A DNA stretch of 64,000 bases from Candidatus Azambacteria bacterium. GTDB lineage: Bacteria; Patescibacteriota; Minisyncoccia; UBA10092. The notes beneath the pieces are model-generated. The model was not told the origin of the DNA, made no database searches, and was given only the letters and a program-made list of their open reading frames with translations. The translations under genes were made by a program, and so were the position numbers. The stretch is from NCBI GenBank assembly GCA_016213445.1, contig JACRAJ010000002.1:36780-100779 (forward strand), read 5' to 3'. This document shows positions 6,578 to 46,027 of this stretch, one piece after another (within the stretch, counting starts at the first letter, position 1; each line of letters starts with the position of its first letter).

Positions 6578-9097
6578 TCAAGCGCCACAGCAGCGCTTAT
6601 ATTTTTTGCCGGAGCCGCAGGGGCAGGGATCATTTCTACCGGCAACATGTTGATTTGAAACATGAGACATTGAATCCGTCACTGTCGCTTGTCGCTTGTC
6701 GCTAATTGCTGATTGCGCCGGCGGCTGGATTTTCAAAATCAGCGACGCAATTTGCGCGTCAAAATTGAAAAGCAAATCCTTAAACAATCTTTTGCTTTCA
6801 TTTTTATACTCCACCAGCGGATCTCTTTGGCCGTACGCCCGAAGCCGCACGCTGTCGCGCAGGTATTCCATATCCTCCAAATGGTTCATCCATAAATTAT
6901 CAAGAATATTGAGCATCAGCATTTTTTCAACCTGCCGCATCAACTCCGGCCCGATTTCTTTTTCTTTTTTATCGTACAAATCTTCCGCGTTTTCCATGTT
7001 TTGATTTTTCAGCAATTCCAAAACTTCGTCGCGGGAAACGCCCGACAAAATTTCCCGTCTTTTTTTATAAATCAAAGAGCGGTGCTGGTTCATCACGTCG
7101 TCGTATTCCAAAATATGTTTTCTGGCGTCGAAATTAAAGCCTTCGATTTTGGTTTGCGCCGATTCAATGGCTTTGGATACCAATCCGGCTTCTATCGGCT
7201 GGTCTTCGGGAATGTTGAGCGTCGTCATTAAATTTTTAATGCGTTCGCCGCCGAATATTTTGAGCAAGCTGTCTTCTAAAGAGACAAAAAATTGCGACGA
7301 ACCTGGGTCGCCTTGCCGGCCGGCGCGGCCTCTAAGCTGGTCGTCGATTCTTCTGGCTTCGTGGCGTTCGGTGCCGATTACGCACAAACCGCCCAAATCC
7401 GCGACTTGTTTGGCCTCTTCGGGATTTTTCGGATTGCCTCCCAAAATAATATCAACGCCGCGGCCCGCCATATTGGTCGCCACCGTCACCGCCCCCAGCC
7501 TGCCGGCTTGCGCGTGAATCGCCGCTTCCCTTTCATGCTGTTTGGCGTTTAAAACTTCATGTTTAATTCCTTCGCGCGAAAGCATCCGCGACAGCATTTC
7601 GTTGTTTTCAATTGAAATTGTGCCGATCAAAACCGGCTGGCCTTTTGCGTTTCGTTCCTTTACTTCATCAACAACCGCTTTAAATTTCGCTTCTTTCGTT
7701 TTGTAAATTTTGTCGGCCAGATTTTTCCTAATCATCGGTTTGTGCGTCGGCGCGATTACGACGCCGAGATTATAAACTTTATGGAATTCCTCGGCTGAAG
7801 TGGCGGCGGTGCCGGTCATTCCGGCTAATTTGTCGTAAAGCCGGAAAAAATTCTGAAAAGTTATTGTCGCTAATGTTTTTGATTCCTGCTGAACTTTCAC
7901 GCCTTCTTTGGCTTCAATCGCCTGATGCAATCCTTCGGAATACCGCCTGCCCTGCAAAAGCCGGCCGGTAAATTCGTCAACGATGATTATTTCGCCATTC
8001 CTGACGACATAGTCTTTATCCTTATGAAAAAGAGCCTCGGCCCTCAGCGCCTGTTCCAAATGATGGACATATCTGATGCTTCTTTCTTCATAAATATTTT
8101 CCATTCCCAAGATTTTTTCCACTTTGTTTAAACCGGCATCGGTGATAATTGCCGTCCTCATTTTTAAATCGACATTATAATCCTCGTTTTCTTTAAGCTG
8201 TGGAACGATTTTGGAGAAAGTTTCGTAAAGTTTCGGCGACTGCGCATCCGGCATAGAAATAATGAGCGGAGTTCGCGCTTCATCGATTAAAATGCTGTCG
8301 ACTTCATCGACAATGGCGAAAGCGCGGCCGGGACTGATTATTTGCGACAAGTCGCCCACTAAATTATCTCTCAAATAATCAAACCCGAATTCGGTGTTGG
8401 TGCCGTAAACTATGTCGCAATTGTAAGCGTCTTTTTTCGACGCCGGCCGCAAAAATTCATGTACCACCCGAAAACTTCCTTGATTGTCTCTTAATTCATC
8501 AAGTTTTTGTTCATTATTTTTGAGATTTGAGATTTGAGATTTGAGATTTGATCCGTGCAGCGGATCATAGATATAACTGCCATCAGAATTTATACATCCC
8601 ACCGTAAGTCCGAGAAAATCATAAATTTGTCCCATCCAAACCGCGTCGCGTCGCGCCAGATAATCGTTGACGGTAATGATATGGACGGAAGCTTTATTGT
8701 CGCCGGCCGAATGCGGGATAGCATTTAAATATGCGGGCAAAGTGGCTGTTAAAGTTTTGCCTTCGCCCGTCGCCATCTGGGCGATTTTTCCTTGGTGAAG
8801 CGCAATCGCGCCCAAAATTTGCTCGTCAAAGTGGCGCTGGTTCAGCGTTCTTTTTGCCGCTTCCCGCGCGATCGCAAACGTTTCGGGCAAAATCTCATCA
8901 AGCGAAGCGCCTTTTAGAAAACGATTTTTAAATTCTTCGGTTTTATTTTTTAAATCACTGTCCGAAAGCTTTAAAAATTGGCCATCAAAAGAATTAACCT
9001 CCTTTAACAGAGGCTTGATTTTATTTAAATATCGTTCATTCGCGTCGCCGAAAATTTTGGATAAAATACTCATCTTGGTTAGAAAATTATATAACAA
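6578..9097 (-). CDS. secA: preprotein translocase ATPase SecA
   Basis: Full-length, 839 aa. DEAD-like motor motifs are present. The C-terminus has the zinc-binding CPCGSGKKYKRCCG. Confidence 0.95.
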   Translation of the reverse strand: MLYNFLTKMSILSKIFGDANERYLNKIKPLLKEVNSFDGQFLKLSDSDLKNKTEEFKNRFLKGASLDEILPETFAIAREAAKRTLNQRHFDEQILGAIALHQGKIAQMATGEGKTLTATLPAYLNAIPHSAGDNKASVHIITVNDYLARRDAVWMGQIYDFLGLTVGCINSDGSYIYDPLHGSNLKSQISNLKNNEQKLDELRDNQGSFRVVHEFLRPASKKDAYNCDIVYGTNTEFGFDYLRDNLVGDLSQIISPGRAFAIVDEVDSILIDEARTPLIISMPDAQSPKLYETFSKIVPQLKENEDYNVDLKMRTAIITDAGLNKVEKILGMENIYEERSIRYVHHLEQALRAEALFHKDKDYVVRNGEIIIVDEFTGRLLQGRRYSEGLHQAIEAKEGVKVQQESKTLATITFQNFFRLYDKLAGMTGTAATSAEEFHKVYNLGVVIAPTHKPMIRKNLADKIYKTKEAKFKAVVDEVKERNAKGQPVLIGTISIENNEMLSRMLSREGIKHEVLNAKQHEREAAIHAQAGRLGAVTVATNMAGRGVDIILGGNPKNPEEAKQVADLGGLCVIGTERHEARRIDDQLRGRAGRQGDPGSSQFFVSLEDSLLKIFGGERIKNLMTTLNIPEDQPIEAGLVSKAIESAQTKIEGFNFDARKHILEYDDVMNQHRSLIYKKRREILSGVSRDEVLELLKNQNMENAEDLYDKKEKEIGPELMRQVEKMLMLNILDNLWMNHLEDMEYLRDSVRLRAYGQRDPLVEYKNESKRLFKDLLFNFDAQIASLILKIQPPAQSAISDKRQATVTDSMSHVSNQHVAGRNDPCPCGSGKKYKRCCGA
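6684..6704. repeat. heptanucleotide microsatellite (TGTCGCT)x3 in the secA C-terminal tail
   Basis: tgtcgcttgtcgcttgtcgct. The same unit, cyclically permuted, occurs in the dnaK C-terminus. Confidence 0.85.
8521..8551. repeat. heptanucleotide microsatellite (TGAGATT)x4 inside secA
   Basis: tgagatttgagatttgagatttgagatttga is read directly in the sequence. It stays in frame and encodes SNLKSQISNLK. Confidence 0.9.
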
Positions 9098-9114
9098 AAC
9101 GTCTTTTTAGGCAA

Positions 9115-9146
9115 CAAAAAAGCCGCGGAAACGCGGCTTTTTTTAT
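9115..9146. terminator. bidirectional rho-independent terminator
   Basis: aaaaaagccgcggaaacgcggcttttttt: a GC stem flanked by an A-run and a T-run. Confidence 0.7.
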
Positions 9147-9154
9147 ATTTGGCT

Positions 9155-9556
9155 TTAATATTTCAATTTTACTCCGAGCTTATCGGCAATTTCTTGAAGC
9201 CATTTTTCATGGCGATCAACTTTGTGGGACAACATAACCATCTCCTGAAAATACGTATCAGCTTTTTGAGCGTAAGCGTCAACGGCCGTGAGAAGATTAT
9301 TAAAGTCAGACTTATCGGCTTTATTTTCTTTAAGATATTCAAGCTGTGAATCTATACTGGAAAATCTGTCATCTATTTTAGAAAACTGGTCATCTATTTT
9401 AGAAAACTGGTCATCTATTTTAGAAAACTGGTCATCTATTTTAGAAAACTGGTCATCTATTTTAGAAAACTGGTCATCTATTTTAGAAAACTGGTCATCT
9501 ACCTTGGAAAATTTATCATCCAAATATTGAATTAACTCTGAAAAATCATTATTCAT
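9155..9556 (-). CDS. hypothetical heptad-repeat protein (8x DDQFSKI)
   Basis: Encoded by perfect 21-bp tandem repeats. The C-terminal half is non-repetitive (EYLKENKADKSDFNNLLTAVDAYAQKAD...). Probably a coiled coil. Confidence 0.6.
   Translation of the reverse strand: MNNDFSELIQYLDDKFSKVDDQFSKIDDQFSKIDDQFSKIDDQFSKIDDQFSKIDDQFSKIDDRFSSIDSQLEYLKENKADKSDFNNLLTAVDAYAQKADTYFQEMVMLSHKVDRHEKWLQEIADKLGVKLKY
9360..9506. repeat. tandem 21-bp repeat array (~7-8 units of gaaaactggtcatctatttta)
   Basis: Units are perfectly identical at the DNA level. The first and last units are degenerate. The array lies inside CDS 9155..9556. Confidence 0.95.
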
Positions 9557-9604
9557 CTTTATATAATAAGTTTGTAAAAAATTAATGTCAAATTTAATTG
9601 ATTT

Positions 9605-9964
9605 TTAATATTTTCCCATAAAAATCCGTCTGAAAAGGCGGGCGCCGCGCCTGTATAGAGAAATATTTTTTTCCTTTTTGGTATTGATTTCTCTTTTGAG
9701 TTCGTCTTTCACGAGATCGATTGCCGCGTGTAAATCCTGCTCTTCAACGTTTGCCCGAATCAATCGCCCCGGCATTGTTAAGTTTACTTCGGCTTTAAAA
9801 ATATCGCCTTTTCTGTGGTGCCTTGTTGTTTTGGCCAGTTCAACATCGGCAAAAATACTTTCATCTTTAGGCAAAAATCTATCCAGGCTGTCTAATTTTT
9901 CTTGAAGATAGTCAAGAATGCCCGGAGTAATTTCAAAATTTTTTGTTTTCAAATCGATTTTCAT
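9605..9964 (-). CDS. hpf: ribosome hibernation promoting factor (HPF/RaiA family, short form)
   Basis: MKIDLKTKNFEITPGILDYLQEKLDSLDRF...HHRKGDIFKAEVNL matches the RaiA/HPF fold signature. Confidence 0.85.
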   Translation of the reverse strand: MKIDLKTKNFEITPGILDYLQEKLDSLDRFLPKDESIFADVELAKTTRHHRKGDIFKAEVNLTMPGRLIRANVEEQDLHAAIDLVKDELKREINTKKEKNISLYRRGARLFRRIFMGKY

Positions 9965-10369
9965 AATTCGATTTTAATTTATAAAATTTTATCCTGCCCT
10001 TAAAGGGACTCGGGTAAGACTAGCCCCAATTCAAATGTCTTTAAGTGGGTTGTCAGTATCACCGAGTCCCTTTAAAAGCCGGATGGCAAACCACCTGTAT
10101 TCATTTTAAAAGAAATAAAAAAATTTGGCAAACAACAAATTCCGCCATAAAGGCGGGATAAGGTTTCCTCAAAAATTCTGCTTTAAGCAGAATTTTTGAG
10201 GAAGCCCTTAAAAGCTCAAAGCCCCGTAAAACGGGGCTTTGCGCCGACATTGAATGGTTGCCGCCTTTCGGCGATCCAACCCACTTATCCGCAGTGTAGC
10301 ATATGTAAAAAATTTTGTAAAGCGCGCGCGGTACTTTTGATTCCTTGGCGCGATACCGCCGATAAATCA
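9965..10369 (-). ncRNA. ~400-bp non-coding structured region upstream of hpf (terminator plus long leader, or an unclassified sRNA)
   Basis: Several perfect hairpins are read directly: cctcaaaaattctgc-tttaa-gcagaatttttgagg (15-bp stem), aaagccccg-taaaa-cggggcttt, and gggactcgg...ccgagtccc. No credible ORF is present. Confidence 0.35.
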
Positions 10370-10852
10370 CTACATTGAAAGAATTTTCCACACGCCTTTT
10401 TCATTTTTTATCAATTCGATTTCAGCCGCAGCGCCGCCGGATTCGTCGGGCACTTCAAATATATAATGATTGTCGCTTGCCGCCTTGCCGTTTTTAAGAT
10501 TTTTCAAATCTTTTATCAAATCGCCCAAAAGATGAACGTTGTAAAGTTCTGCCAAATCCTGCGATTCCGCCTCCCTATTTTCCAAAGAAAAATATTCAAC
10601 CGCCAGCATTAAATTATTTTTTTCCAAAGCGCCAATGAGAAATTTGATCGTTTCCTGGGGCGTTTTTCCCCCAATGTCGGAAAATCGATCCGCTTCGCCG
10701 CCATCGCCAATTTGAGAATTTGAAGACGCGGCCGGATTTTGATTTTTAATTTTGTTTTGATCTCCATTTAAAAACCACAAGCCCAAAAGGCCGGCGCCGA
10801 GAATAATGCCCATTACGACAAAACTTCTTAAAATGTTTTTGAAGGCAGCCAT
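10370..10852 (-). CDS. hypothetical membrane-anchored protein
   Basis: N-terminal TM helix followed by a low-complexity region. Overlaps the upstream gene by 25 nt; an alternative start at 10813 is possible. Confidence 0.55.
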   Translation of the reverse strand: MAAFKNILRSFVVMGIILGAGLLGLWFLNGDQNKIKNQNPAASSNSQIGDGGEADRFSDIGGKTPQETIKFLIGALEKNNLMLAVEYFSLENREAESQDLAELYNVHLLGDLIKDLKNLKNGKAASDNHYIFEVPDESGGAAAEIELIKNEKGVWKILSM

Positions 10853-11325
10853 GGACTTAAAAAAATTAAAATTATAATTAAAACCGCGCCCAAAATGATA
10901 TTTTTCGCTAAAACTTTTTTAAAATCGTTTTCGTCCGAGCCGGCAAACAGATTCTGATCGCGGCGCAATTTAAACCATTCTCTAAAAATATTAAAAATAA
11001 TCGCAAAAATCACCGCCAGCACCCCCCCTAAGATAAAAAACGGAAACGGCAAAAAAGAAATAACCCAAACCAATTCGCTAAATCCCAAGGCGGCGCCCAA
11101 AGAAACGATAAAAATCTGTTTTCGGCTTTTTAAGCCGAACAGCTCGCCCGCCCGACGAATAATTAAAAGCCCTTTCCAAAAAGTAAAAAAAGAAATCAAA
11201 CTCAACATGGCAAATCCCGCGACGAAATTAACGGTTTGCGACAAAATTAAAAACCAAATAAAACTCGCCGTGAAAAATATCAAAAGGGGCGAAAAGAATG
11301 AGAATTTTTTCGGCGTAATTTTCAT
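10828..11325 (-). CDS. hypothetical polytopic membrane protein
   Basis: Four or five hydrophobic helices. Overlaps the upstream protease gene by 4 nt. Confidence 0.55.
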   Translation of the reverse strand: MKITPKKFSFFSPLLIFFTASFIWFLILSQTVNFVAGFAMLSLISFFTFWKGLLIIRRAGELFGLKSRKQIFIVSLGAALGFSELVWVISFLPFPFFILGGVLAVIFAIIFNIFREWFKLRRDQNLFAGSDENDFKKVLAKNIILGAVLIIILIFLSPWLPSKTF

Positions 11326-12287
11326 ATCTTCAAAACGTCGCTGACAATTTTTTTAACTTGGTTTACGGGAATGGCAAAACCTATACTTTGGGCGTTTTGC
11401 GCTATAGCCGTGTTGATGCCTATCACTTCCCCCTTCAAATTTAAAAGCGGTCCGCCAGAATTGCCGGGATTTATTGAAGCGTCGGTTTGAATTACGTTAT
11501 AGATTGTTTCCGTTAAGCCTCCGCCGCTGGCAGTGATATTTCTTGAAAGGCCCGACACCACGCCGACATTGACCGTATTCCTAAATTCACCCAAAGCATT
11601 GCCGATAGCGACCGCCGTTTGGCCAACTTGAATTGAATCGGAATTGCCAAGCTTAAGCGTCGGCAAATTCAAAGCGGCAATTTTTAAAACGGCGATATCG
11701 GTATTCGCATCGCGAACCAAAACCTTTGCGTCATATTTTTTTCCGTCATTGGTGAAAACCGTGTATTGCGCCGCCGCGTCCTGCACTACGTGTTTATTGG
11801 TTAAAATTAAACCGTCGCCGGAAATTATAAACCCGCTGCCGCCGCCAATCTCCTGGAACTTGGTTCCTTTTTGGCAAGGCTGATAAAACTTAAGATTTTG
11901 GCCGAAAAATTGCTGGACTTCCGGCGGCAGATTTGAAAACGGATTGTAAGGACACTGTTCGATGATCGGAACATTTTTGGAAATCGTAATCGCCACCACG
12001 GCCGGCGAAGCATTTTTGGCCGCGTTTATAATTTTTGATTCATAATCAACCGGAGCGTAAACTTCATTTGATGGAGCTAAATTTAAACTTTGGGGCGTGC
12101 TGGTGGCCTGTTGTTTCTCGCCAAATAATCGATTTAAAAACGGCGCTTTTCGGAAAAAATCCAAAACCGACGCGTTGGCAAATATCGCGCCGGAAAGCGG
12201 CCCGATGACAACGGCGGTTAAAACGCTCGCCGCCAAAGCCGCCAACAGCATTTCTTTAAATGAATATTTTTTGTTTTCTTCATTCAT
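11322..12287 (-). CDS. trypsin-like serine protease (S1C/HtrA-like, no PDZ domain)
   Basis: The His (TNKHVV), Asp (DIAVLKI) and Ser (GNSGGPLL) catalytic triad motifs are all present. Confidence 0.8.
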   Translation of the reverse strand: MNEENKKYSFKEMLLAALAASVLTAVVIGPLSGAIFANASVLDFFRKAPFLNRLFGEKQQATSTPQSLNLAPSNEVYAPVDYESKIINAAKNASPAVVAITISKNVPIIEQCPYNPFSNLPPEVQQFFGQNLKFYQPCQKGTKFQEIGGGSGFIISGDGLILTNKHVVQDAAAQYTVFTNDGKKYDAKVLVRDANTDIAVLKIAALNLPTLKLGNSDSIQVGQTAVAIGNALGEFRNTVNVGVVSGLSRNITASGGGLTETIYNVIQTDASINPGNSGGPLLNLKGEVIGINTAIAQNAQSIGFAIPVNQVKKIVSDVLKI

Positions 12288-12319
12288 ATTTTTAAATTAT
12301 TTATATTGGTTTGAAAGAT

Positions 12320-13561
12320 CTATTTTGATTGCAATGCGCTTAAAACCTTATTTATTATTTCCGCGGCTTTCTTTATTTCTTCCTTCGCGGTGTTTTTGCC
12401 GAGAGTAATCCGAATACTTTCTTTCGCTTCTTTTTCAGTCAAACCGATTGCGGTTAAAACATGGGAAGGCTCCATTGCCCTGCTGGAACAAGCGGAACCG
12501 GCCGAAACCGCCACACCGGCCTGATCCAAAGCCACTATAAGCGTTTCATTGCTTATTCCCGGAAACCTTATATTAATGTTATTCGGCAATCGGCCTTCAA
12601 AAGAGCCGTTTAATTCGGCCGACTTATTGTATTTAACGATATTTTCCCACAAGCCGTTTCGCAAATCAAGAACATGTTTGGAACGTTTCTCGCGATTTTT
12701 TCCGCCAGAGGCGGATCCGCCTCTGGCGGAAAAAATCAATTCAACCGCTTTCGCCAATCCGGCAACGGCGGCGACATTTTCCGTGCCCGAACGCAAACCG
12801 AATTCCTGCCCGCCGCCGGAAATAATCGGCGAAAGCGGCGTGTTTTTTCTTACATAAAGCCCGCCAATACCTTTGGGACCGTAAATTTTATGTCCGGAAA
12901 AAGTAAGCAAATCCGCTTTAAGCCAATCGGGGCGGCATTCCAAATAATTCATCGCCTGCACCGCGTCGGTGTGGAAATATATTTTTGAGAACCCATTTTC
13001 CCGCCTTGTTTTATTAATTTTTTCAATCAATTTCCCGATTTCTTTTATCGGCTGGATTGTTCCGATTTCATTATTGGCGTAAATAACGCTTACCAAAACC
13101 GTATTGTTTTTGATTGTTTTTTCAATGTCGGAAATTTTTACCAACCCGTTTTTATCAACCGGAAGATAATCAATTTCATGGTCGGCTTTTTTTAATTCTT
13201 TCAGCGGCTCGTGAACCGACTCGTGTTCTATCGGCGTGGAAATTATATGGTATTTAGTATTTGATATTTCTTGTTTTGTATTTTTTTTGAAAATTGAAAA
13301 TTGAAAATTCCTCGCAATTCCCAAAATTGCGAGGTTATTAGCTTCTGTCGCCGAGCCGGTGAAAATTATTTCGTTGAAATCGCAATTTAACAATTCGGCG
13401 ATTTTTCCCCGCGCGCCGTCTATTGCCGCTATCGCCTCCTGGCCGAATGAATGAATTGAAGAAGCGTTGCCGAATTTTTCGGAAAAATACGGCATCATCG
13501 CTTTTAAAACTTCGTCATCAACCGGTGTTGTCGCCGCGCAATCAAGATAGATTTTTTTCAT
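12320..13561 (-). CDS. cysteine desulfurase (class V aminotransferase, NifS/IscS family)
   Basis: PLP-lysine motif SGHKIYGPKGIGGLYVR and active-site SAGSACSS. It contains two in-frame repeat insertions (see repeat features). Confidence 0.85.
   Translation of the reverse strand: MKKIYLDCAATTPVDDEVLKAMMPYFSEKFGNASSIHSFGQEAIAAIDGARGKIAELLNCDFNEIIFTGSATEANNLAILGIARNFQFSIFKKNTKQEISNTKYHIISTPIEHESVHEPLKELKKADHEIDYLPVDKNGLVKISDIEKTIKNNTVLVSVIYANNEIGTIQPIKEIGKLIEKINKTRRENGFSKIYFHTDAVQAMNYLECRPDWLKADLLTFSGHKIYGPKGIGGLYVRKNTPLSPIISGGGQEFGLRSGTENVAAVAGLAKAVELIFSARGGSASGGKNREKRSKHVLDLRNGLWENIVKYNKSAELNGSFEGRLPNNINIRFPGISNETLIVALDQAGVAVSAGSACSSRAMEPSHVLTAIGLTEKEAKESIRITLGKNTAKEEIKKAAEIINKVLSALQSK
12696..12735. 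repeat. perfect 40-bp palindromic element, GGATCC-centred, inserted in-frame in the cysteine desulfurase
   Basis: ttttttccgccagaggcggatccgcctctggcggaaaaaa encodes SARGGSASGGKN. This stretch has no counterpart in E. coli IscS. A near-identical element sits in fba. Confidence 0.9.
13289..13334. repeat. (GAAAATT)x3 microsatellite plus 9-bp-stem hairpin inserted in-frame in the cysteine desulfurase
   Basis: gaaaattgaaaattgaaaatt is followed by cctcgcaattcccaaaattgcgagg. Together they encode an extra ~13 aa (FQFSIFKKNTKQE) relative to IscS. Confidence 0.85.
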
Positions 13562-15955: not shown

Positions 15956-16007
15956 AGTGTTTAACGGACTTATCTAAGAATGGACTAAAATCAACAAAAA
16001 AACAAGT

Positions 16008-17156
16008 TTATTTTTCGGTTTTCGGTTCGCGAACAAAAAACAATGCGGCAAACGCGATTGCGGTTAAAATCAGTGAAAGCGCAAATGGCGCCCGAAAATT
16101 TACGGCATCCCATAAAATGCCGGCGATAAAAGAAGCCGGCAAAGCTATCAGGCCGATAAGCATTTGGAAACCGCCTATGATGCTTGCTCTCATATTGTAA
16201 GGAGCGAATTCCGCCACGATAGTTTTTATATTGCCTTCATAAGCGGCGCCGTGCAATCCGTAAACGGCGAACGCCAAAAGAATCATCCAGAGCGAATTAA
16301 AAAAAATAAACATCGCGTTAGTCGCCATAAATAAAATGAAAGCAAAACCGATTACCGGGCGCCGGCCGATTTTATCCGCCATCTTGCCGAAAGGAATCGC
16401 CATAAGAGATGAAAAAAGCATATATGTCAGATAAAATAACGGCAATAATTTTAAAGAAACGCCAAGTTTGTTTGCCGCCAGAATATAAAATGAATCGGAA
16501 AAGGCGCCCAAAGTGAAAATTGCCGAAAGAGCGGTGAAAACTTTAAAATCGCGGCTGGCAAATTTAAAAGAAAATTTCGGCGCGAGGCCATCGGACGTTA
16601 TTTTTTCTTTGACGAAAAATAAAATAATCAAGCTGCCGGCAAGCGAAGGAATGGCGGCTATTAAAAATAGCTCGCGATAAGCGAAATATCCCGCCAAAAA
16701 CAGCGATGCGGCAAGGCCCAAAACAGCGCCGCCCCGGTCGGCCGCTCTCAGCGCCCCAAAAGCCGAAGCTCTTTTTTCGCGAGGCGTGATGTCGGCCACG
16801 ATGGCATCCCGGGGCGCGTCGCGCATTTTCCCGGACCTGTCCAAAATTTTGCCGGGGATCAATTGCCAGCTTCTCGTTGAAAACGAGTAAATAATTCTTG
16901 AAAAAAAGGCGAAAAAATAACCGAGCCAGATAAAAATTTTCCGCTTTTTTATTTTATCCGACAATAATCCCGACGCGGCTTGCGACAGGGAAGCGAAAGC
17001 GTCGCCCAAACCGTCAACAAATCCTAAAAACATCGCCGAAGCTCCGATTACCGAGGTGACAAAAATCGGCCAAATCGTAAAAACAAAATAATGCCCGAAA
17101 TCGTTTAAAAACGCGCCGATTGAAAACAGCCAAACTGTTTTTTTGTTTTCATCCAT
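16008..17156 (-). CDS. MFS transporter
   Basis: Twelve TM helices. MFS loop motif GKMRD/ADKIGRRP between TM2 and TM3. Confidence 0.8.
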   Translation of the reverse strand: MDENKKTVWLFSIGAFLNDFGHYFVFTIWPIFVTSVIGASAMFLGFVDGLGDAFASLSQAASGLLSDKIKKRKIFIWLGYFFAFFSRIIYSFSTRSWQLIPGKILDRSGKMRDAPRDAIVADITPREKRASAFGALRAADRGGAVLGLAASLFLAGYFAYRELFLIAAIPSLAGSLIILFFVKEKITSDGLAPKFSFKFASRDFKVFTALSAIFTLGAFSDSFYILAANKLGVSLKLLPLFYLTYMLFSSLMAIPFGKMADKIGRRPVIGFAFILFMATNAMFIFFNSLWMILLAFAVYGLHGAAYEGNIKTIVAEFAPYNMRASIIGGFQMLIGLIALPASFIAGILWDAVNFRAPFALSLILTAIAFAALFFVREPKTEK

Positions 17157-17275
17157 GGTTTGATTATTTCACAGTTTAGTTTAAAATAAAAAGTATTAAC
17201 TTTTTTTAGCTGCCTCGGCTCGGAAATGTGAAAGAATACTTTCCCATTTCTCTCGCTCTACGTCGCTAATAAAAC

Positions 17276-17764: not shown

Positions 17765-17785
17765 ATTGACGGTCATTTCATAAAC

Positions 17786-17822
17786 AAAACCGCCCCGCAG
17801 CTGCGGGGCGGTTTTGTTTTTC
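17786..17822. terminator. bidirectional intrinsic terminator
   Basis: aaaaccgccccgcagctgcggggcggttttgttttt, between convergent genes. Confidence 0.8.
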
Positions 17823-17828
17823 AAAGAT

Positions 17829-18599: not shown

Positions 18600-18675
18600 G
18601 CTTATTAAAAATAACTAATATTAATAATGAAATTATATCATATCAACAAAATCGCGTTATCAACACGCCGCGATA

Positions 18676-19089: not shown

Positions 19090-19119
19090 GCTGATTCGCC
19101 TTTGGCGGACAATTTAATA

Positions 19120-19620: not shown

Positions 19621-19626
19621 ATTTTT

Positions 19627-20552: not shown

Positions 20553-20562
20553 TGCTATAATA
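20553..20562 (+). promoter_or_regulatory. extended -10 promoter element (TGcTATAAT) upstream of the helicase gene
   Basis: ttgttttatgctataatag lies 8 bp before the ATG region. Confidence 0.4.
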
Positions 20563-20569
20563 GCAAAAC

Positions 20570-21760: not shown

Positions 21761-21771
21761 AAAACTTTTTG

Positions 21772-27189: not shown

Positions 27190-27224
27190 TGTTTAATGAT
27201 ATGCGACATACAATATGTAACATA

Positions 27225-36932: not shown

Positions 36933-37658
36933 ATGGCATTATTCAACATAATGGACTCCAAAAAAACAATAATTTTCCTTCACGGCTGGGGGGTTTCTTC
37001 AAAAATATTCGGGCCGCTTTTTTATTATTTTAAAAATGATTTTACCGTTTATTCCCCGGACTTGCCCGGCTTCGGTGAAACCCCGATTAAAAACATAATG
37101 ACTTTAAAAGATTATGCCGATTTTGTTTATAAGTTCGTTAAAGATGAAAACATCGAAAAGCCGATAATTATCGGACATTCTTTCGGCGGGGCGGTGGCGG
37201 CCAAATTCGCGATAAATTATCCCGACACTGCCTCGCTATTAGTTTTAGTCGGCGCCAGCTCCATTCGCGAACCGAATTTAAAAACCAAACTACTGGGAAA
37301 AGCCGCCGGAATTTTAAAATATTTTATACCGAAAAAAATGCGAAAAACCATTTTAAAAATTTTTAAACTCGACGCGTCCGATTACGCTTTAATAGAGAGT
37401 CCCCTTTTGAAAGAAACATTCAAAAATCTGATAAAAGAAAATCTGGCGGCGGAATTGCCGATGATAAAAATTCCTGCGCTTATCATCTGGGGCGAAAAAG
37501 ACGCGGAAACGCCGCTTAAAGAAGGGCAAAAAATCGCCGAACTTATTCCCAGCGCTAAATTTGCGATTATAAAAAACGCCGGCCATTTTGTGTTTTTGCA
37601 AAAGCCCGATGAATTTACCAAATTAATTAGAGAATTTTGTTTAGAAATTAAAAATTAG
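36933..37658 (+). CDS. alpha/beta hydrolase
   Basis: Nucleophile elbow GHSFGG and a downstream His (NAGHFVF). Confidence 0.8.
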   Translation: MALFNIMDSKKTIIFLHGWGVSSKIFGPLFYYFKNDFTVYSPDLPGFGETPIKNIMTLKDYADFVYKFVKDENIEKPIIIGHSFGGAVAAKFAINYPDTASLLVLVGASSIREPNLKTKLLGKAAGILKYFIPKKMRKTILKIFKLDASDYALIESPLLKETFKNLIKENLAAELPMIKIPALIIWGEKDAETPLKEGQKIAELIPSAKFAIIKNAGHFVFLQKPDEFTKLIREFCLEIKN

Positions 37659-37675
37659 AAAATAGAAATTTTTAC

Positions 37676-40035: not shown

Positions 40036-40064
40036 ACGCGAAAATTATACACTATTTATTATTA

Positions 40065-41702
40065 TTATTCTACCGGTTTGTCGGGAGGAATGCCCCAATA
40101 GCTGAATATGAATTGAGCCAAATCGTGAAAAACCGGCACAACCGTGCTTTCAGCGAAACGAACCCCTTTGGGATTGTCGATTTTAATCACGGTGATAAAT
40201 TTCGGATCGTATGCCGGCGCGAAACCGACGAATGTGTGGATATTTTCGTTTGCTTTGTAAGTGTGTGTTTTTAAATCTGGAATTTGAGCCGTTCCGGTTT
40301 TTCCGGCGATGGAATATCCGGCAATTTGAGCCCGCCGGCCGCTTCCGTTTTCAACCACTTTCACCATCATTGCTATTATTTTAGCTGAAGTTTCGGGAGA
40401 AATAACTTGGGTTCCCGGCTCGCTTTTCACTTCACGGCTTTCTCCGTTTCGGAAAATGATTTTAGCCGCCAAATGGGGCCTGACCAATTTGCCGCCGTTG
40501 GCAATTACCGATAGTGCCCGAATAAGCTCGACGGGCGTCAAAGCAACGCCCTGCCCAAAAGAAGCGGTGGCAAAATTAATGTCTCTCATATTCGATAGAA
40601 TTGAAAGATCTCCGGAAATTTCTTTGACATCGATTCCGGTTTTGCTGTCGATGCCAAAATTTTTCAGATATTTAAGAAATACGTCTTTCGGCACTTGCTG
40701 TTCAACAAAAACGGCGCCGGTATTTAAAGATTGTTCCAAAACCATTGGCATTGCCTGCCAACCCAAAACTTCGTTCGGCATAGCGTTGGAAATAATTCTG
40801 CCGTCAATTTTCACGCTGCCGGTGTTGTAGTACTTTGTCTCCGTCGTAACCGCGCCGGTATCAATGCCAATCGCCATAGTGATCGGTTTGAAAACTGAAC
40901 CGGGCTCATAACGTTTTAAAGTGGCCGGATTCATAAAAAAATCTTTATCGGAAACGGCGGAATAATTGTTGGCGTCGAAATCGGGAAAAGACGCCATGGC
41001 GGCGATATCGCCGTTTTTAGGATTCATCACAATAATAGAGCCGCTGTCGGCCTGCCACTTTTGAACCGCCGCGGAAATCAACGATCCGGCTTGAGCTTGA
41101 ATCGTCGAATCAATCGTTAAAACCAAATCGGCGCTGGAAACCGGCCCGGAAAGATCGTTATTGTAATATTCTTCAAGGCCGTACTGGCCAGCTTGACCAT
41201 TTTTGCCGAATCCCAAAAAACCGATAACCTGCGAAAGGCGCAAACCTTCGGGATAATATCTCAAAGTTTCGCTGTCGACGCCGAGAGCCGGGTCGCCCAA
41301 AGCTTTAACGGCGTTTACAACATCATCGGAAACTTTTTTCTTTAGAACTTCATAAGGATCATTGGTTTTTGACAACTTCTGCAATAAAAATTGTTCTTCG
41401 ACCTGCAAAATCGGAGCTAATTTTTTCGCCAATCCCGCCGGATCCGCCGCTTTTGACGGCGCGGCGTAAATCAAAGAAAATTCTTTATTCAAAACCGCGG
41501 CGTACGGAATATTGTCTTTATCGGTTAAAAAAATGCTGCCGCGGGAAATAACGCCGCTATTGGTACCCAAACTTTTGGCTTTGGCCATATAATAATCATG
41601 GCGGATGACAGTTAAATAAAAAAACCGCCCCCAAATAAGCAGGCTAAAAAAAATAAACCCGAGAATTAAAACCAAAATTCTTTTTTCCGGATTATGTTTC
41701 AT
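40065..41702 (-). CDS. ftsI: penicillin-binding protein 2 / FtsI transpeptidase
   Basis: SxxK (GSVFKP), SxN and KTGT motifs. Has an N-terminal anchor. Confidence 0.9.
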   Translation of the reverse strand: MKHNPEKRILVLILGFIFFSLLIWGRFFYLTVIRHDYYMAKAKSLGTNSGVISRGSIFLTDKDNIPYAAVLNKEFSLIYAAPSKAADPAGLAKKLAPILQVEEQFLLQKLSKTNDPYEVLKKKVSDDVVNAVKALGDPALGVDSETLRYYPEGLRLSQVIGFLGFGKNGQAGQYGLEEYYNNDLSGPVSSADLVLTIDSTIQAQAGSLISAAVQKWQADSGSIIVMNPKNGDIAAMASFPDFDANNYSAVSDKDFFMNPATLKRYEPGSVFKPITMAIGIDTGAVTTETKYYNTGSVKIDGRIISNAMPNEVLGWQAMPMVLEQSLNTGAVFVEQQVPKDVFLKYLKNFGIDSKTGIDVKEISGDLSILSNMRDINFATASFGQGVALTPVELIRALSVIANGGKLVRPHLAAKIIFRNGESREVKSEPGTQVISPETSAKIIAMMVKVVENGSGRRAQIAGYSIAGKTGTAQIPDLKTHTYKANENIHTFVGFAPAYDPKFITVIKIDNPKGVRFAESTVVPVFHDLAQFIFSYWGIPPDKPVE

Positions 41703-41716
41703 ACATAACTGCTATA

Positions 41717-42037
41717 TCATTGGCTTTTCGCCACCGAGCCGGAAACTTGGACATACTGGATTTTATCATTGGCAACAAGATTCATATTTTTAGCCGCTTT
41801 TTCAAGAAAACCGATACTTCGCTTTTCGGAAAGATTAAGGTTGAGAGACCTTATTTCTATTTTCAAATTATCAACGGTTTTTTGCAATACGGTTTTTTGA
41901 TAATTGGCCACAACCACGCTGTTTATCGCAAACAGATAAAACACGGCCAAGCCGATAACGCTTAAACCGAAAATTGTGTTAAGCGATTCTAATTTTAAAT
42001 TTTCAAATGCCTGTATTTTTAATGCGGCTCTGTTCAT
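41717..42037 (-). CDS. ftsL: FtsL-like cell division protein
   Basis: Small bitopic protein with a coiled coil. Its position between rsmH and ftsI matches the dcw cluster. Confidence 0.55.
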   Translation of the reverse strand: MNRAALKIQAFENLKLESLNTIFGLSVIGLAVFYLFAINSVVVANYQKTVLQKTVDNLKIEIRSLNLNLSEKRSIGFLEKAAKNMNLVANDKIQYVQVSGSVAKSQ

Positions 42038-42918
42038 AATTTTTCAATTACTCTCAATTTCGCGCTGCGGCTTTTAGGATTAATTTTTATTTCTTCAGCC
42101 GAAGCGACAACGGGTTTTTTATTCAAAATTTTAATTATGTTTTCCTTGCTTAAATCTTTAGACCAATTTTTCACCAATCGATCTTCCAAAGAATGAAATG
42201 AAATGAATGCCGCCCTCCCGCCTCCCGATAAAATTTTCGGAATATCGGCCAAGGCTTTTTCTATTTCCGCCAATTCCCCGTTAACCTCGATTCTTAGCGC
42301 CTGGAAAATTTTTGTTGCCGGATGGATTTTCCCCCGCCGCCTTATAACTTTTTCGATAATCGCAACCAGTTCTTTCGTCGTTTTTATTCTTCCGCGATCT
42401 CTGGCTTGCGCCACAGCCCTTGCAACCATCCTCGCTTTCGGCTCTTCTCCGAATTCTTTGAAAATTCTGAAAAGTTCCGCTTCTCCGTAATCATTTAAAA
42501 TATCCTCGGCCGTAAGCGGCGTCCGGATGTCGTAGCGCATATCGAGAATTTCATCTTTTTGGAATGAAAATCCTTTTCCCGAATTTTCCAGCTGGCCGGT
42601 CGACATTCCAAAATCAATCACAACGCCCTTAATTTCGCCGATGCCGCTTTCTTCGACAATTTTCAAAATGTTCCCGAAAGAATCGTTTGCAAAAACAACC
42701 CTGTTTCCGAATTCTTCCAAATTAATCTTGGCGCGGCTTATCGAATCAATATCGCGATCGATGGCAATCAATTTTCCATTCGGCGCGGTTTTTTCGAGTA
42801 TCGCTTTAGCATGGCCGCCGTCGCCCACCGTGGCATCGATAAAATTCTGATTCGCCTGCGGATCCAGATATTTCAAAACTTCGTTTAAAAGAACGGGAAC
42901 GTGCATATCAGATTCCAA
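42034..42918 (-). CDS. rsmH: 16S rRNA (cytosine1402-N4)-methyltransferase RsmH
   Basis: SAM-binding DATVGDGGH and the MraW family pattern. Confidence 0.9.
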   Translation of the reverse strand: MESDMHVPVLLNEVLKYLDPQANQNFIDATVGDGGHAKAILEKTAPNGKLIAIDRDIDSISRAKINLEEFGNRVVFANDSFGNILKIVEESGIGEIKGVVIDFGMSTGQLENSGKGFSFQKDEILDMRYDIRTPLTAEDILNDYGEAELFRIFKEFGEEPKARMVARAVAQARDRGRIKTTKELVAIIEKVIRRRGKIHPATKIFQALRIEVNGELAEIEKALADIPKILSGGGRAAFISFHSLEDRLVKNWSKDLSKENIIKILNKKPVVASAEEIKINPKSRSAKLRVIEKL

Positions 42919-43339
42919 ACTCGCTTAATCCTTCCGCAATATCGCCGGACATTTTTTCCGCTTCGCCGATATATTCGTTCCAAATGTTTTCGCTCCAAAG
43001 CTCAACGCGGTCGGAAACGCCGATCACTACAATCGATTTTTCCAATCCGGCGTAATTTTTAAGCGAATCGGGAATTAAAACGCGGCCCATTTCATCAATC
43101 TCAACTTCGGAAGCGCCCGAAAGCATAAATCTTTTAAAATCCCGGGCTTTTTTCTGGCCAAGCGGCAAATTATTCATTTTTTCCATAAAGATCTGCCAAT
43201 CGCGATGAGGATAAATAAACAAACAGTTGTCCAAGCCTCTCGTTAAAACCGGCTTCTCCCCCAATTCCATTCGCAATTTTGCCGGAATCGTGAGGCGGTT
43301 CTTGGAATCCAAATTGTGCTTAAATTCGCCTAACAACAT
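42908..43339 (-). CDS. mraZ: transcriptional regulator MraZ
   Basis: MLLGEFKHNLDSKNRLTIPAKLR, a tandem MraZ/SpoVT-AbrB repeat. Confidence 0.9.
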   Translation of the reverse strand: MLLGEFKHNLDSKNRLTIPAKLRMELGEKPVLTRGLDNCLFIYPHRDWQIFMEKMNNLPLGQKKARDFKRFMLSGASEVEIDEMGRVLIPDSLKNYAGLEKSIVVIGVSDRVELWSENIWNEYIGEAEKMSGDIAEGLSEFGI

Positions 43340-43340
43340 G

Positions 43341-43454
43341 TATTGTTATCCCCAGTTTTATATACTTATCCACAAACTTACCCACAATCTCCCACCAAGC
43401 AAATTAATCTTAATATAAAAAAATCAGGCCCGCAATAGGCCTGATTGTGGATAA
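43341..43454. promoter_or_regulatory. cluster of DnaA-box motifs upstream of mraZ (two perfect TTATCCACA/TGTGGATAA plus two 1-mismatch boxes) with an AT-rich stretch
   Basis: ttatcccca at 43345, ttatccaca at 43366-43374, ttacccaca at 43378-43386 and tgtggataa at 43446-43454. The stretch aaattaatcttaatataaaaaaa lies between them. Confidence 0.45.
43414..43446 (-). terminator. intrinsic terminator downstream of tRNA-Val
   Basis: The minus strand reads aatcaggcctattgcgggcctgatt plus a T-run. Confidence 0.6.
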
Positions 43455-43471
43455 GTTTTTAAGAATTTATG

Positions 43472-43543
43472 TGGGCGCAATAAGAATCGAACTTATACTC
43501 TCTCCGATGTGAACGGAGCGTTTTGCCATTAAACTATGCGCCC
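43472..43543 (-). tRNA. tRNA-Val (anticodon CAC)
   Basis: GGGCGCATAGTTTAATGGCAAAACGCTCCGTTCACATCGGAGAG... Anticodon loop ttCACat. Confidence 0.75.
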
Positions 43544-44130
43544 TAAATTTTAAGTTTATTTATCAGTTTTTCGTGCTTGAAATCCAAAAGATCGCGAATA
43601 AAGCGGTCATACATTCCGTATCGATAATAAAATTCTTTCGTTGTCATCAGGCTGTAATTGATTTCTTTGCCGATTTCCGCTTCCAGCGCGCCGATGAAAT
43701 TATTGAATTTTGCCAACTTTACATTGTCGCCGACCACCAAAAGATCCGCTCCCGAATTGTCGCAATTTACGAATACGCCGCTAAGAATCGCCAATTTTAT
43801 TTTTCCCAAAGTTTTTAAGCGCTTCAGCATTTTTTCTTTTGAAGCCGGACTGGCTTTGACAAGCAGTTCCCTTAATTCGTTATAAAACGCAAAACCGCGA
43901 TTAACCCCGAAAGTCTGTTCGCTTTTTACATTTTTCCGAATCAAAAAATTGATCCCGACCAAATCTTCGATATTTTTTCTCACCGGAGCCGGTTTCAAAT
44001 TAAGTTTTTTTGACACCGCGTTCAATTTAAAATTTTCTTCCGGACTGCGCAAAAACAGCTTTAAAAGCCTCACCTTAACCGGAGAATCGAACAAAGCGTC
44101 AAATGTGGGTTCTAAAAATTTTTTCGCCAT
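43543..44130 (-). CDS. hypothetical protein with possible winged-helix domain
   Basis: The start is set at MAKKFLEP (44130). No catalytic motif is visible. Confidence 0.5.
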   Translation of the reverse strand: MAKKFLEPTFDALFDSPVKVRLLKLFLRSPEENFKLNAVSKKLNLKPAPVRKNIEDLVGINFLIRKNVKSEQTFGVNRGFAFYNELRELLVKASPASKEKMLKRLKTLGKIKLAILSGVFVNCDNSGADLLVVGDNVKLAKFNNFIGALEAEIGKEINYSLMTTKEFYYRYGMYDRFIRDLLDFKHEKLINKLKI

Positions 44131-44218
44131 ATCGCAACCTATGATAAAACAAAACGCCCGATTTTTCAATCGCGCGTTTTGTTTTTATGCTAATCTTATA
44201 TTATTTCGTTAATACCCT

Positions 44219-44599
44219 TTATTTCAATTCAACCGTTGCTCCGGCCGCTTCCAGTTTTTTCTTCAATTCTTCGGCTTCGGCTTTTCCGACGCCGCTTTTT
44301 ACAACTTGAGGAGCGGTATCAACCAACTGCTTCGCTTCTTGAAGGCCTTTGTCGGTCGCTTCGCGAACCGCTTTGATGACGGCAATTTTCTGATCGCCCG
44401 CCTTGGCCAATACCACGTCAAAAGCGCTCTTTTCTTCCACGGCCGCCGCTTCTCCGGCTCCGCCGGCCATCGGCATAGCCATCATGGGCGCCGCCGCCGA
44501 CACGCCGAATTTTTCTTCCAGCGCTTTAACGAGCTCGGAAAGTTCCAATGCGGTAAGTTTTTCTATTTCTTCGATTATTTTGTTGTATTTATCCGACAT
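44219..44599 (-). CDS. rplL: 50S ribosomal protein L7/L12
   Basis: N-terminal dimerisation helix, an Ala-rich hinge and a C-terminal domain ([13 protein letters not shown]). Confidence 0.9.
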
Positions 44600-44642
44600 A
44601 TTATTAAATTAATTTTAAATTTATAATTTTCAATTTTTTTGT

Positions 44643-45167
44643 TTACGACCTTTTACCTTTTAAATTATTTAACACTCCGACCAAATCGCGCATATTGCCT
44701 TGCAACACATTCGCCAATCCTGAAAGCGGAGAAGCAACCGTTCTGACAAATTGCCCCAAAAGAATTTCCCGAGAAGGCAGTTTCGCCAAAGCGATTATCT
44801 TTTCTTTTCCCTGCCAATTGATTCCCAAAAATCCTCCCAAAATTTTAAGAGCGTCATTAGCTTTGGAAAATTTCCAAACCGAGCTCGCCGCCGGCACCGG
44901 ATCGGCATAACTGAAAACCACGCCCACCTGATTCTTAAAGCTATCAAGATCCACGTTTTCAAAATGTTCGGATTTCAAAGCCCTGTCAATCAAAGTTTTT
45001 TTGGCAACCTTGTATTCGGCGTCGGCCGCTTTCAAATTGCGCCGCAATTCCATGGTTTTGCTTACGGGCAATTTATTAAAATCAACAAAAACCGCTGCCT
45101 TGGCTCGTTTAAATTTATCAACCAAATCTTTCAAAATATTCTGTTTTTGTTCTTTTGTTAACGGCAT
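44643..45167 (-). CDS. rplJ: 50S ribosomal protein L10
   Basis: L10 family. Upstream of rplL. Confidence 0.85.
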   Translation of the reverse strand: MPLTKEQKQNILKDLVDKFKRAKAAVFVDFNKLPVSKTMELRRNLKAADAEYKVAKKTLIDRALKSEHFENVDLDSFKNQVGVVFSYADPVPAASSVWKFSKANDALKILGGFLGINWQGKEKIIALAKLPSREILLGQFVRTVASPLSGLANVLQGNMRDLVGVLNNLKGKRS

Positions 45168-45345
45168 ATATTTAAAATTTTCAATATTTCAAGCATTAAA
45201 AAATGCGGATTATAATCCGCAAATAATAAAAGCATCTGCTTTTATCCTCGGAGAGGCTCACATCTTTCGAAAGCTCTCTGTCTGCGGACTGCGTCCTCCG
45301 AAGCTTTATGCGAAGGAGGATATTACCAATATATTATGTGCGCAA
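45168..45345 (-). promoter_or_regulatory. candidate rplJ (L10) leader / autoregulatory structured 5' UTR
   Basis: A 175-nt untranslated region with the hairpins gcggattataatccgc and ctccgaggataaa...tcctcggag directly upstream of rplJ. Calling it the L10 leader is inference. Confidence 0.35.
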
Positions 45346-45352
45346 AATCTTG

Positions 45353-46027
45353 TCAACCTTGGTATCGCTTCCTCCACTCCTCGATTTTTTTATGGTTGCC
45401 GGAAAGCAAAACTTCGGGAACGGCGTATTTTTTACCGCGATAAATAAAAACATCCGGACGAGTGTATGTTGGAACGCCAATTCCGTATCTCTTTTCTTCG
45501 AGCGATTCCTCTTTGCCCAAAACACCCGGAATATGCCGCGAAACCGCGTCAATAACAACCATTGCCGGAAGTTCCCCTCCGGTTAAAACATACGGCCCTG
45601 CTGATAATTCCGAAATCCGAAATTCGAAATTCGAAATTACTTTTTTAATCCGCGCGTCAACGCCTTCATAACGGCCGGCAATCATCACGATGCGATCATA
45701 TTTTTTGGCGAAATCGCTTGCCATCTTGGAATTAAATTGTTTTCCGGAAGCGGAAAATAATATTATCTTGACTTTTGATTTTTGATTTTTGATTTTTGAT
45801 TTTAAAATCGAATCGAGAGCTCTAACAATCGGTTCAGCTTTAAACACCATTCCCGCTCCCCCGCCATACGGCTTTCCGTCAACCGTTTTATGCTTGTCGG
45901 TCGTAAAATCGCGCAAATTAATCGCGTTGATTTTAATTTTCTTGTTTTTTAAGGCGCGCTTAATGATACTCTCGTTTAAATAAGAATCGAAAATTTTCGG
46001 AAAAATTGTTATTATGTCAAATTGCAT
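45353..46027 (-). CDS. trmD: tRNA (guanine37-N1)-methyltransferase TrmD
   Basis: HKTVDGKPYGGGAGMV and the SPOUT knot region YVLTGGELPAMVVIDAVSR. Confidence 0.9.
   Translation of the reverse strand: MQFDIITIFPKIFDSYLNESIIKRALKNKKIKINAINLRDFTTDKHKTVDGKPYGGGAGMVFKAEPIVRALDSILKSKIKNQKSKVKIILFSASGKQFNSKMASDFAKKYDRIVMIAGRYEGVDARIKKVISNFEFRISELSAGPYVLTGGELPAMVVIDAVSRHIPGVLGKEESLEEKRYGIGVPTYTRPDVFIYRGKKYAVPEVLLSGNHKKIEEWRKRYQG
45611..45638. repeat. heptanucleotide microsatellite (CGAAATT)x4 in trmD
   Basis: cgaaatccgaaattcgaaattcgaaatt encodes ISNFEFRIS in a variable loop. Confidence 0.85.
45773..45808. repeat. heptanucleotide microsatellite (TTTTGAT)x4-5 in trmD
   Basis: cttttgatttttgatttttgatttttgattttaaaatc encodes LKSKIKNQKSKVK. 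Confidence 0.85.

Follow-up and report, generated by a model that had tools for sequence, protein, structure and literature searches.

A 64-kb stretch of the genome of Candidatus Azambacteria (hereafter the window), a tiny-genome groundwater bacterium of the Candidate Phyla Radiation (CPR, or Patescibacteria), carries tandem arrays of 7-nt units within and beside conserved genes that include secA, dnaK, trmD and cysS. We propose that these tracts are genuine heptanucleotide simple sequence repeats (SSRs), produced by a 7-nt-specific, DNA-level process that acts across this Patescibacteria (Azambacteria/Paceibacteria-like) lineage and is filtered by selection. To this explanation we assign a probability of roughly 0.7. 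An earlier suggestion that the arrays are contingency loci, at which slippage switches essential genes on and off, finds no support in the data presented below.

Tracts were detected with Tandem Repeats Finder (TRF) and with a separate scan for perfect runs, and genes were identified with Pfam. Every tract listed in a preliminary description of this DNA was recovered by TRF and the perfect-run scan, at coordinates offset by 1-5 nt. Period 7 accounts for 19 of the 71 TRF rows, and tracts occur at positions between 2974 and 57365 of the 64 kb of the source genome scanned by TRF. Perfect runs with two or more copies of a 7-nt unit number 27 in the window, whereas 7.5, 7.9 and 9.2 are expected from Markov simulations (orders 1, 3 and 5; maximum 18, 100 simulations per order) and 8.1 +/- 1.9 after shuffling codons within genes (maximum 13; 200 shuffles). 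Counts at periods 4, 5, 6 and 8 match expectation. The enrichment of period 7 over periods 6 and 8, whose absence genome-wide the preliminary description had named as grounds for refutation, is therefore present in the window. Runs of at least three copies number five at period 7 and zero at periods 6 and 8. The same specificity emerges from a lag profile of near-perfect self-matches (at least 13/14). In the window, lag 7 reaches 10.9 matches per 100 kb, followed by its multiples, lag 14 (7.8) and lag 21 (4.7), and by lag 24 (3.1), with all other lags at 1.6 or below.

The period-7 excess is a property of the lineage and is not special to the window, a conclusion supported by comparison loci from other genomes. 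Among GTDB species representatives, the best match to the SecA of the window belongs to an Azambacteria metagenome-assembled genome (MAG; L001) and is 77% identical. We assembled 80 secA-anchored loci from genomes (31 CPR, 45 clearly non-CPR and 4 ambiguous loci that were set aside) and 80 trmD-anchored loci from metagenomes, all of them CPR-like, for a total of 111 CPR loci among 160. Counting period-7 runs against an order-3 Markov expectation, we found 99 runs versus 47.6 expected (2.08x) in the CPR secA loci and 208 versus 86.9 (2.39x) in the CPR trmD loci, whereas the 45 non-CPR loci yielded 60 versus 59.8 (1.00x). AT-richness as the cause was considered and ruled out: AT-rich non-CPR loci (23 runs versus 18.0 expected, 1.28x) show no period-7-specific excess, their ratio being equal to that at period 8. 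Periods 6 and 9 are raised both in the secA-anchored CPR loci and in the non-CPR loci, as expected for amino-acid repeats. Across CPR loci, lag 7 stands at 5.5 per 100 kb, and lags 4-6 and 8-13 do not exceed 1.8. When anchor genes are excluded, the density of perfect tracts 17 nt or longer is 4.9 per 100 kb in the window, 5.0 and 4.5 in the two CPR sets and 1.1 in the non-CPR set. Tracts of this length lie fully within coding sequence in 64 of 92 CPR cases and in 0 of 7 non-CPR cases. The excess in 31 secA-anchored and 80 trmD-anchored CPR loci, and its absence from 45 non-CPR loci, supports the alternative that the preliminary description had offered to contingency, namely a genome-wide mutational signature of this lineage.

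The sequences of the units are diverse and their positions biased. We counted at least 40 distinct units in the CPR loci, mainly A-rich on the sense strand and sharing no consensus; the longer tracts of the window alone comprise at least eight. Although coding sequence holds 118 of the 162 CPR tracts that reach 15 nt or more, their density is 2.3x higher in non-coding DNA (26.2 versus 11.2 per 100 kb across all CPR loci), and in the window 7 of the 19 TRF period-7 arrays fall in the short spacers that make up ~9% of the sequence. Several more tracts are found at the very ends of genes, on the stop codon or in the few codons before it (16012, 26558, 27223, 44648 and 56364). All 64 tracts within CPR coding sequences lie in intact frames, and translation around each tract of the window likewise leaves the reading frame intact. 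The preliminary description had attributed the latter to partial flanking units; the frames are indeed intact, but the attribution merely restates that the open reading frames (ORFs) are. Net length differences from homologs, 15 residues for SecA (relative to L001 and L004) and 6 and 5 residues for TrmD (relative to a solved structure), do not correspond to whole numbers of units. Pfam confirmed SecA, a class-V aminotransferase (NifS-like), DnaK, GrpE, CysRS and TrmD as hosts or neighbors of tracts.

Within genes, the arrays lie in variable loops, linkers and tails. This placement had been proposed from comparison with Escherichia coli homologs and is backed by our alignments to CPR homologs and to solved TrmD and SecA structures. 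One secA tract (8519-8551, minus strand; perfect AAATCTC x4.7, TRF unit TTTGAGA) encodes SNLKSQISNLK, residues 183-193, in a part of NBD1 that is variable and aligns poorly with solved SecA structures. It lies within a 15-residue insertion that is not present in L001, L004 or L026; in the L002 SecA, an 11-residue gap marks the same site. A second secA tract (6683-6703, minus strand; perfect AAGCGAC x3.0, TRF unit TGTCGCT; SDKRQAT) occupies a variable linker before the SEC-C zinc motif, where other CPR genomes carry other heptamers (AAAATTG in L001, GTCGTGG in L011 and CCCTAAA in L032). The CCCTAAA tract comprises 19 perfect nt plus degenerate copies and encodes ALNPKPYTLNP; its unit complements the plant-type telomere repeat TTTAGGG, a match that is almost certainly coincidental. 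In the NifS-like gene, the tract (13287-13309, minus strand; AATTTTC x3.3, TRF unit TTGAAAA) encodes NFQFSIF within residues 85-92, in a region that varies and shows gaps in alignment with the L001 ortholog. The C-terminal tail of DnaK (residues 601-610) is encoded by an imperfect array (27267-27296, minus strand; AAGCGAC x4.3, 82% matches) whose TRF unit, CTTGTCG, is a rotation of that of the secA linker, such that both read AAGCGAC in the sense direction. A short AATAATA-type tract of 2.1 copies lies over the dnaK stop codon (27223-27237, minus strand).

The trmD gene contains two arrays on the minus strand. These coincide with gaps of six and five residues in alignment to the solved Staphylococcus aureus TrmD (3ky7), the loops being longer in the Azambacteria protein. 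Site 1 (45768-45803; AAAATCA x5.1, 31 nt perfect; KSKIKNQKSK) lies in the loop that precedes the KIILFS strand, where homologs carry perfect tracts with units that differ by lineage: AAAATCA in the window, L096 and L144, AAGCGAC in L084, AAATCTC in L086, AAAATGC in L100, AAAAGTC in L108, AAATCCA in L114 and AAATTCC in L121. The window, L096 and L144 share an identical 30-nt tract, AAATCAAAAATCAAAAATCAAAAATCAAAA, in TrmD proteins that are only 54-58% identical, and the codons flanking it differ at both synonymous and non-synonymous sites. Given a conserved peptide and the codon usage of the window, the chance of such codon identity is ~8e-4 per lineage.

Site 2 (45606-45638; TRF AATTTCG x4.6; SNFEFRISE) consists of four units in the window, two ATTTCGA followed by two ATTTCGG. 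In all Azambacteria-like homologs the orthologous array likewise has four units and shares the phase ATTxxxx, with the unit itself varying by lineage (ATTTCGA/G in the window, ATTTCGG in L081, ATTGAAA in L084 and L091, ATTAGAA in L085 and ATTTAAA in L088). Units diverge at 1.31 of 7 positions within arrays and at 2.66 of 7 between lineages at the same array position (permutation p < 1e-4), so orthologous arrays have evolved in concert. Where a perfect unit would yield an in-frame TGA, TAG or TAA, a one-base change to TGG (W), TGC/TGT (C) or TTG (L) is found instead, which explains the W/C/L/S variation across 120 homologs at this site. This pattern carries the signature that concerted evolution or repeated re-expansion would leave, and it points to a homogenizing force at the level of DNA, countered by selection only where stops would arise. 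We have not seen such concerted evolution in TrmD, with its homogenized arrays, patched stops and an identical tract in distant lineages, described previously.

Other features of trmD deserve mention in their own right. TrmD makes the m1G37 tRNA modification, which suppresses +1 ribosomal frameshifting. The gene is a hot spot for tracts in which a +7 slip would amount to a +1 frame error, and nothing suggests that this is more than coincidence. A different type of insert follows the LRDF motif: a GC-rich, hairpin-forming sequence, GCCCGCCCGACCGAATGGTCATTCGGGCGGG, that encodes ARPTEWSFGR (L161, ~2925-2965, and L162, from other Azambacteria). In-gene TrmD inserts also occur in P0037, P0039, P0041, P0052, P0061 and P0066, and a related ALRQ...QGK...YQRQ form is found at the same site in other homologs. 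This insert looks like a small palindromic element that may be tolerated in frame. Finally, in an Adlerbacteria-like population (L163-L166, contigs that encode P0129), at least 12 independent contigs all end 21 nt upstream of trmD Met71. Strain heterogeneity or a repeat may thus cause assemblies to break repeatedly within the 5' part of the gene.

We favor a model in which new 7-nt arrays would arise and be re-homogenized throughout the genome. Slippage during replication, or template switching, in a register of 7 nt is the most likely source. Selection would then spare three kinds of array: those in intergenic spacers, in-frame arrays whose unit has no stop in any of the three frames, and those in permissive loops, linkers and termini of proteins. 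Arrays that survive in essential genes would thus act as short, low-complexity insertions in loops or linkers, and not as switches. With a genome that is ~90% coding, many of the surviving arrays would therefore lie inside essential genes.

Several observations weigh against this model. We infer both the slippage mechanism and the reason for a period of seven, and copy-number polymorphism was not directly observed; the concerted evolution at trmD site 2 lends active slippage indirect support. Gap lengths in the few close CPR pairs available from an all-against-all megablast of the 160 loci are sparse and do not favor seven (9 gaps of 7 nt, 23 of 6 nt and 6 of 8 nt). Because a slip of one unit is a frameshift, the model does not explain the growth of arrays in essential genes, nor their persistence as pure repeats of constant length. 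Loops in TrmD homologs measure 11, 13 and 15 residues, in steps of two residues rather than seven. The two-residue steps hint at compound events, for example a +7 change combined with a -1 change in an A-run. The window, L096 and L144 share both unit and length at trmD site 1, which could alternatively reflect selection for a function at the nucleotide level. Some units also reappear in unrelated genes: AAGCGAC is shared by secA, dnaK and the L084 trmD, and AAATCTC by secA and the L086 trmD. Lastly, the trmD loci were picked by similarity to a tract-bearing protein, a bias that the recount of tract densities without anchor genes corrects.

The arrays find their closest counterpart in the long-SSR class of bacterial repeats. 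As cited in later work, Mrázek, Guo and Shah (2007; PNAS 104:8472) identified heptanucleotides as the most abundant class of long SSR in SSR-rich bacteria, proposed polymerase slippage as their origin, and related the preference for seven to the 7-nt stretch of DNA that the polymerase active site contacts (PMC4692102, PMC4679880). In the same accounts, long SSRs with units of 5-11 nt are described from Burkholderia, cyanobacteria, actinobacteria and Xanthomonas, with units in coding regions being mostly multiples of three (PMC4692102, PMC4679880). Judged from these secondary descriptions, the CPR arrays resemble that class in their 7-nt-specific excess, their many different units, their presumed slippage origin and their sporadic phylogenetic distribution. 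The window likewise exceeds the expectation from its own composition (27 runs versus 7.5-9.2), with seven dominant among the longer unit lengths. The CPR arrays differ in that the host is a small-genome CPR bacterium, in that most tracts by number are in coding sequence, essential genes included, and in that orthologous in-frame arrays evolve in concert. In the literature that we searched, SSRs were not linked to CPR bacteria or Patescibacteria in any paper, although this absence is not proof of novelty; a search on mismatch repair in CPR likewise brought up nothing of use.

Families of heptamers defined by a specific sequence are a second point of comparison. Examples given in the sources cited here are STRR in Calothrix, GGGAATC in Xanthomonas and GGGGA(T/C)T in Nostoc (PMC4692102), and TAACTGA in marine Beggiatoaceae (PMC4679880). 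The CPR arrays share with these families their tandem 7-nt organization, their enrichment in a lineage and their frequent location in spacers beside gene starts and ends. A given genome, however, has only one or a few defined units of such a family, essentially confined to intergenic DNA, whereas the CPR arrays draw on at least 40 mostly A/T-rich units, many of which are translated. Membership in a sequence-specific family is ruled out by this number of units and by the 118 of 162 tracts that are coding. A single repeat family is similarly excluded by the varied vocabulary of units; AAGCGAC, for example, is absent from the 160 loci apart from secA, dnaK and the L084 trmD.

A more novel possibility is that this clade possesses an unusually active mechanism of repeat generation and homogenization in a 7-nt register, which would continuously write and rewrite arrays in the permissive loops and linkers of even highly conserved proteins. 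We regard this as a tentative possibility, somewhat doubtful on present evidence. Such a mechanism could stem from the replicase or from a reduced repair set, and it would yield three features of these data: in-frame arrays that keep a constant length and evolve in concert, the patching of stop codons by point mutation, and convergent identical tracts in distant lineages.

Arrays might instead be nucleotide-level functional elements kept by selection, for instance as promoter or UP-like elements, protein binding sites, mRNA structures or sites of translation pausing. The identical, perfect 30-nt tract of constant length in three deeply diverged trmD genes fits such a role, as does the recurrence of a few units across unrelated genes. 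So, too, do the TTGAAAA arrays upstream of cysS and dnaK, which stand in sense orientation. The cysS array (31590-31631, plus strand; TTGAAAA/TTGATAA x6.0) directly precedes the likely ATG at 31633. It had been described as abutting the start of cysS, which is correct; it is not intragenic, since this ATG is downstream of it. The array is non-coding because its unit contains stops in the plus-strand sense. Most of the grpE-dnaK spacer is occupied by two degenerate arrays (29150-29211 and 29235-29265, minus strand; 8.9 and 4.4 copies) that read AATTTTC/ATTGAAA on the plus strand and are of the TTGAAAA type in the dnaK sense. Weak sigma-70-like or promoter-like matches are found in both places (TTGAAA-N17-GAAAAT in the grpE-dnaK spacer; TTGAAA-N17-GAGAAT and TTGATA-N17-GAAAAT upstream of cysS); a TTGAAAA array automatically contains TTGAAA-N17-GAAAAT. 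A promoter role for the upstream arrays was rejected: the matches reach only 9 of 12 positions, and upstream tracts across CPR loci favor neither a particular unit nor a particular orientation. A search with Rfam returned tRNAs only and thus no match for the arrays. The breadth of the unit vocabulary, which lacks a common consensus, also speaks against shared functional elements, and lineage-specific homogenization of orthologous arrays suits turnover better than conservation. Selected nucleotide-level function is thus an unlikely explanation for the arrays as a group.

Contingency, the interpretation advanced in the preliminary description, holds that slips of +/-7 nt switch secA, dnaK, trmD and the NifS-like gene, or tune cysS and dnaK through their upstream arrays. 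It has an evident basis in the unit length, which is not divisible by three, so that a change of a single unit shifts the frame, and in the location of such units within the secA, trmD, NifS-like and dnaK ORFs and directly upstream of cysS and dnaK, where arrays could alter promoter geometry. Heptamers in the coding region of neuO of Escherichia coli K1 and in the hmw1A and hmw2A promoters of Haemophilus influenzae provide phase-variation precedents (PMC13001214, PMC8262952). The Azambacteria arrays resemble these loci in their 7-nt unit and in their position within or just upstream of genes, and they share with neuO the constraint that a 7-nt unit preserves the frame only when copy number changes in threes. 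The genes neuO, hmw1A and hmw2A are accessory surface or virulence genes, with expression-switching alleles and a copy number that varies both between and within strains. By comparison, the arrays described here comprise 3-6 copies in essential housekeeping genes, show no OFF allele among 92 tracts and keep a constant length within species-level TrmD clusters.

Direct evidence for switching was sought by simulating changes of +/-1-2 units at the 92 perfect tracts, each 17 nt or longer, of the window and the 111 CPR loci. None of the 92 is in an OFF phase; that is, no simulated change gave a substantially longer frame. Full-length sizes are constant in ten TrmD clusters (at least 90% identity), some of them represented on 30-63 contigs of independent origin, start-site and homopolymer artefacts aside. 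Short TrmD members of 149-167 residues were examined as candidate OFF alleles and rejected, as their truncation is unrelated to heptamers: L161 has lost 1 nt, L162 has a larger deletion, and in other cases the contig stops within the gene. No conspecific genome was found: a look-up of the exact protein of ORF 44219-44599 came back empty, and the TrmD of the window is matched at 100% only by the source contig, with the nearest relative beyond it 80% identical. The arrays are short, and the same excess of tracts is seen at C-terminal tails and in downstream spacers, where switching is impossible.

Real contingency loci typically have OFF alleles and affect dispensable genes. The genes affected here, which encode SecA, DnaK, TrmD, a cysteine-desulfurase-like aminotransferase and CysRS, are not of dispensable or niche-adaptive types, and secA, dnaK, trmD and cysS are single-copy essential genes, which counts against phase variation. 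Three of the four hallmarks of a contingency locus, OFF alleles, length polymorphism and dispensable genes, are lacking, leaving only a unit change that alters frame or expression. On these grounds, the lack of OFF alleles, the constant lengths and the essential nature of the genes, we reject phase variation for the coding tracts and consider contingency very unlikely overall. The arrays upstream of cysS and dnaK could still influence expression quantitatively.

Protein-level selection for flexible linkers rich in K, S and N, with a 7-residue period, could in principle generate the DNA periodicity as a by-product. The peptides KSKIKNQKSK, SNLKSQISNLK and SDKRQATSDK are hydrophilic and located in loops or tails, and K-rich loops are also present in homologs without perfect tracts. 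However, non-coding DNA has a higher density of tracts than genes do, the codon identity at trmD site 1 far exceeds the prediction from codon usage, and some products are hydrophobic (NFQFSIF in the NifS-like protein and SNFEFRISE in TrmD). The patching of stops likewise has the appearance of a DNA repeat pressing against the protein rather than trailing it. Tracts outside genes, together with the identity of codons, largely refute this explanation, and we give it still less credence than contingency. That the arrays are artefacts of assembly or sequencing can be dismissed with near certainty even though all sequences derive from MAGs or metagenome contigs, given that tracts lie in frame in intact essential genes, recur over many independent projects and assemblers, occur in TrmD proteins that are identical on up to 63 contigs (NCBI, JGI, ENA and Logan), and are not in excess on non-CPR contigs from comparable assemblies.

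Further heptamer arrays of the window lie in spacers or at the ends of genes. On the plus strand, TTAGAAA x4.3 (37641-37670) covers the last codons of an alpha/beta-hydrolase gene and the spacer before a Mur-ligase gene. On the minus strand, a composite tract (44611-44662) joins AATTTTA x3.9 in the spacer at 44600-44642 to AAAAGGT x2.1 at the C-terminus of ORF 44643-45167, and AACCGAA x2.3 (16012-16027) encodes the last residues of ORF 16008-17156. Two more arrays occupy spacers: TTAAAAA x4.3 (2974-3003), between ORFs 2067-2969 and 2995-4410, and the period-7/8 sequence TTTTATAA (57331-57365), between ORFs 56367-57293 and 57362-58357. In several other CPR loci, two or more different heptamer arrays stand back to back in single spacers (L117, 7781-7849; L145, ~998-1050; L114, ~2297-2340). 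The L117 spacer, for example, contains (AATTATG)x4, 12 nt and then (CTTGATT)x4. Some CPR spacers are thus largely made of heptamer arrays.

The window also contains repeats of other lengths. ORF 9155-9556 (minus strand) encodes a small coiled-coil-like protein of no firm Pfam family and harbors a 21-nt tandem repeat (9360-9501; x6.8, 98% matches) that encodes (DDQFSKI)n. The L001 ortholog has a single copy, which identifies the repeat as a recent in-frame expansion of 126 nt. Its unit equals three times 7 nt, yet lacks internal 7-nt periodicity. ORF 46693-48315 (minus strand; 540 residues, no Pfam match) contains tandem repeats of 117 nt (x1.8) and 144 nt (x3.3) at 46868-47083 and 47350-47822, along with the GC-rich hexamers GGCGCG and GGCTTC, and its composition differs from that of the rest of the window. 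Four clustered tRNA genes (Trp, Thr-TGT, Tyr and Thr-GGT) lie at 49531-50423 on the minus strand. GC skew is negative window-wide and the majority of genes are on the minus strand, which suggests that a single replichore was sampled.

For the annotation of CPR genomes, these results counsel caution: frame-breaking microsatellites in essential genes should not be read as switches without evidence for OFF alleles. The tracts could nonetheless be of use as strain-typing markers in uncultured CPR populations. If the process we propose operates, some of the small insertions that conserved CPR proteins carry in particular lineages could be traced to it. An unusually active mechanism of array generation and homogenization, should it exist, would amount to a lineage-specific engine for such insertions and offer a handle on the 7-nt preference. 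If the period-7 bias is general in Patescibacteria, the group would provide a natural and compact system for a question that goes back to the 2007 survey cited in later work, namely why bacteria favor a 7-nt unit in long SSRs, as genomes that are ~90% coding reveal both the mutational process and the filter that selection imposes on it.

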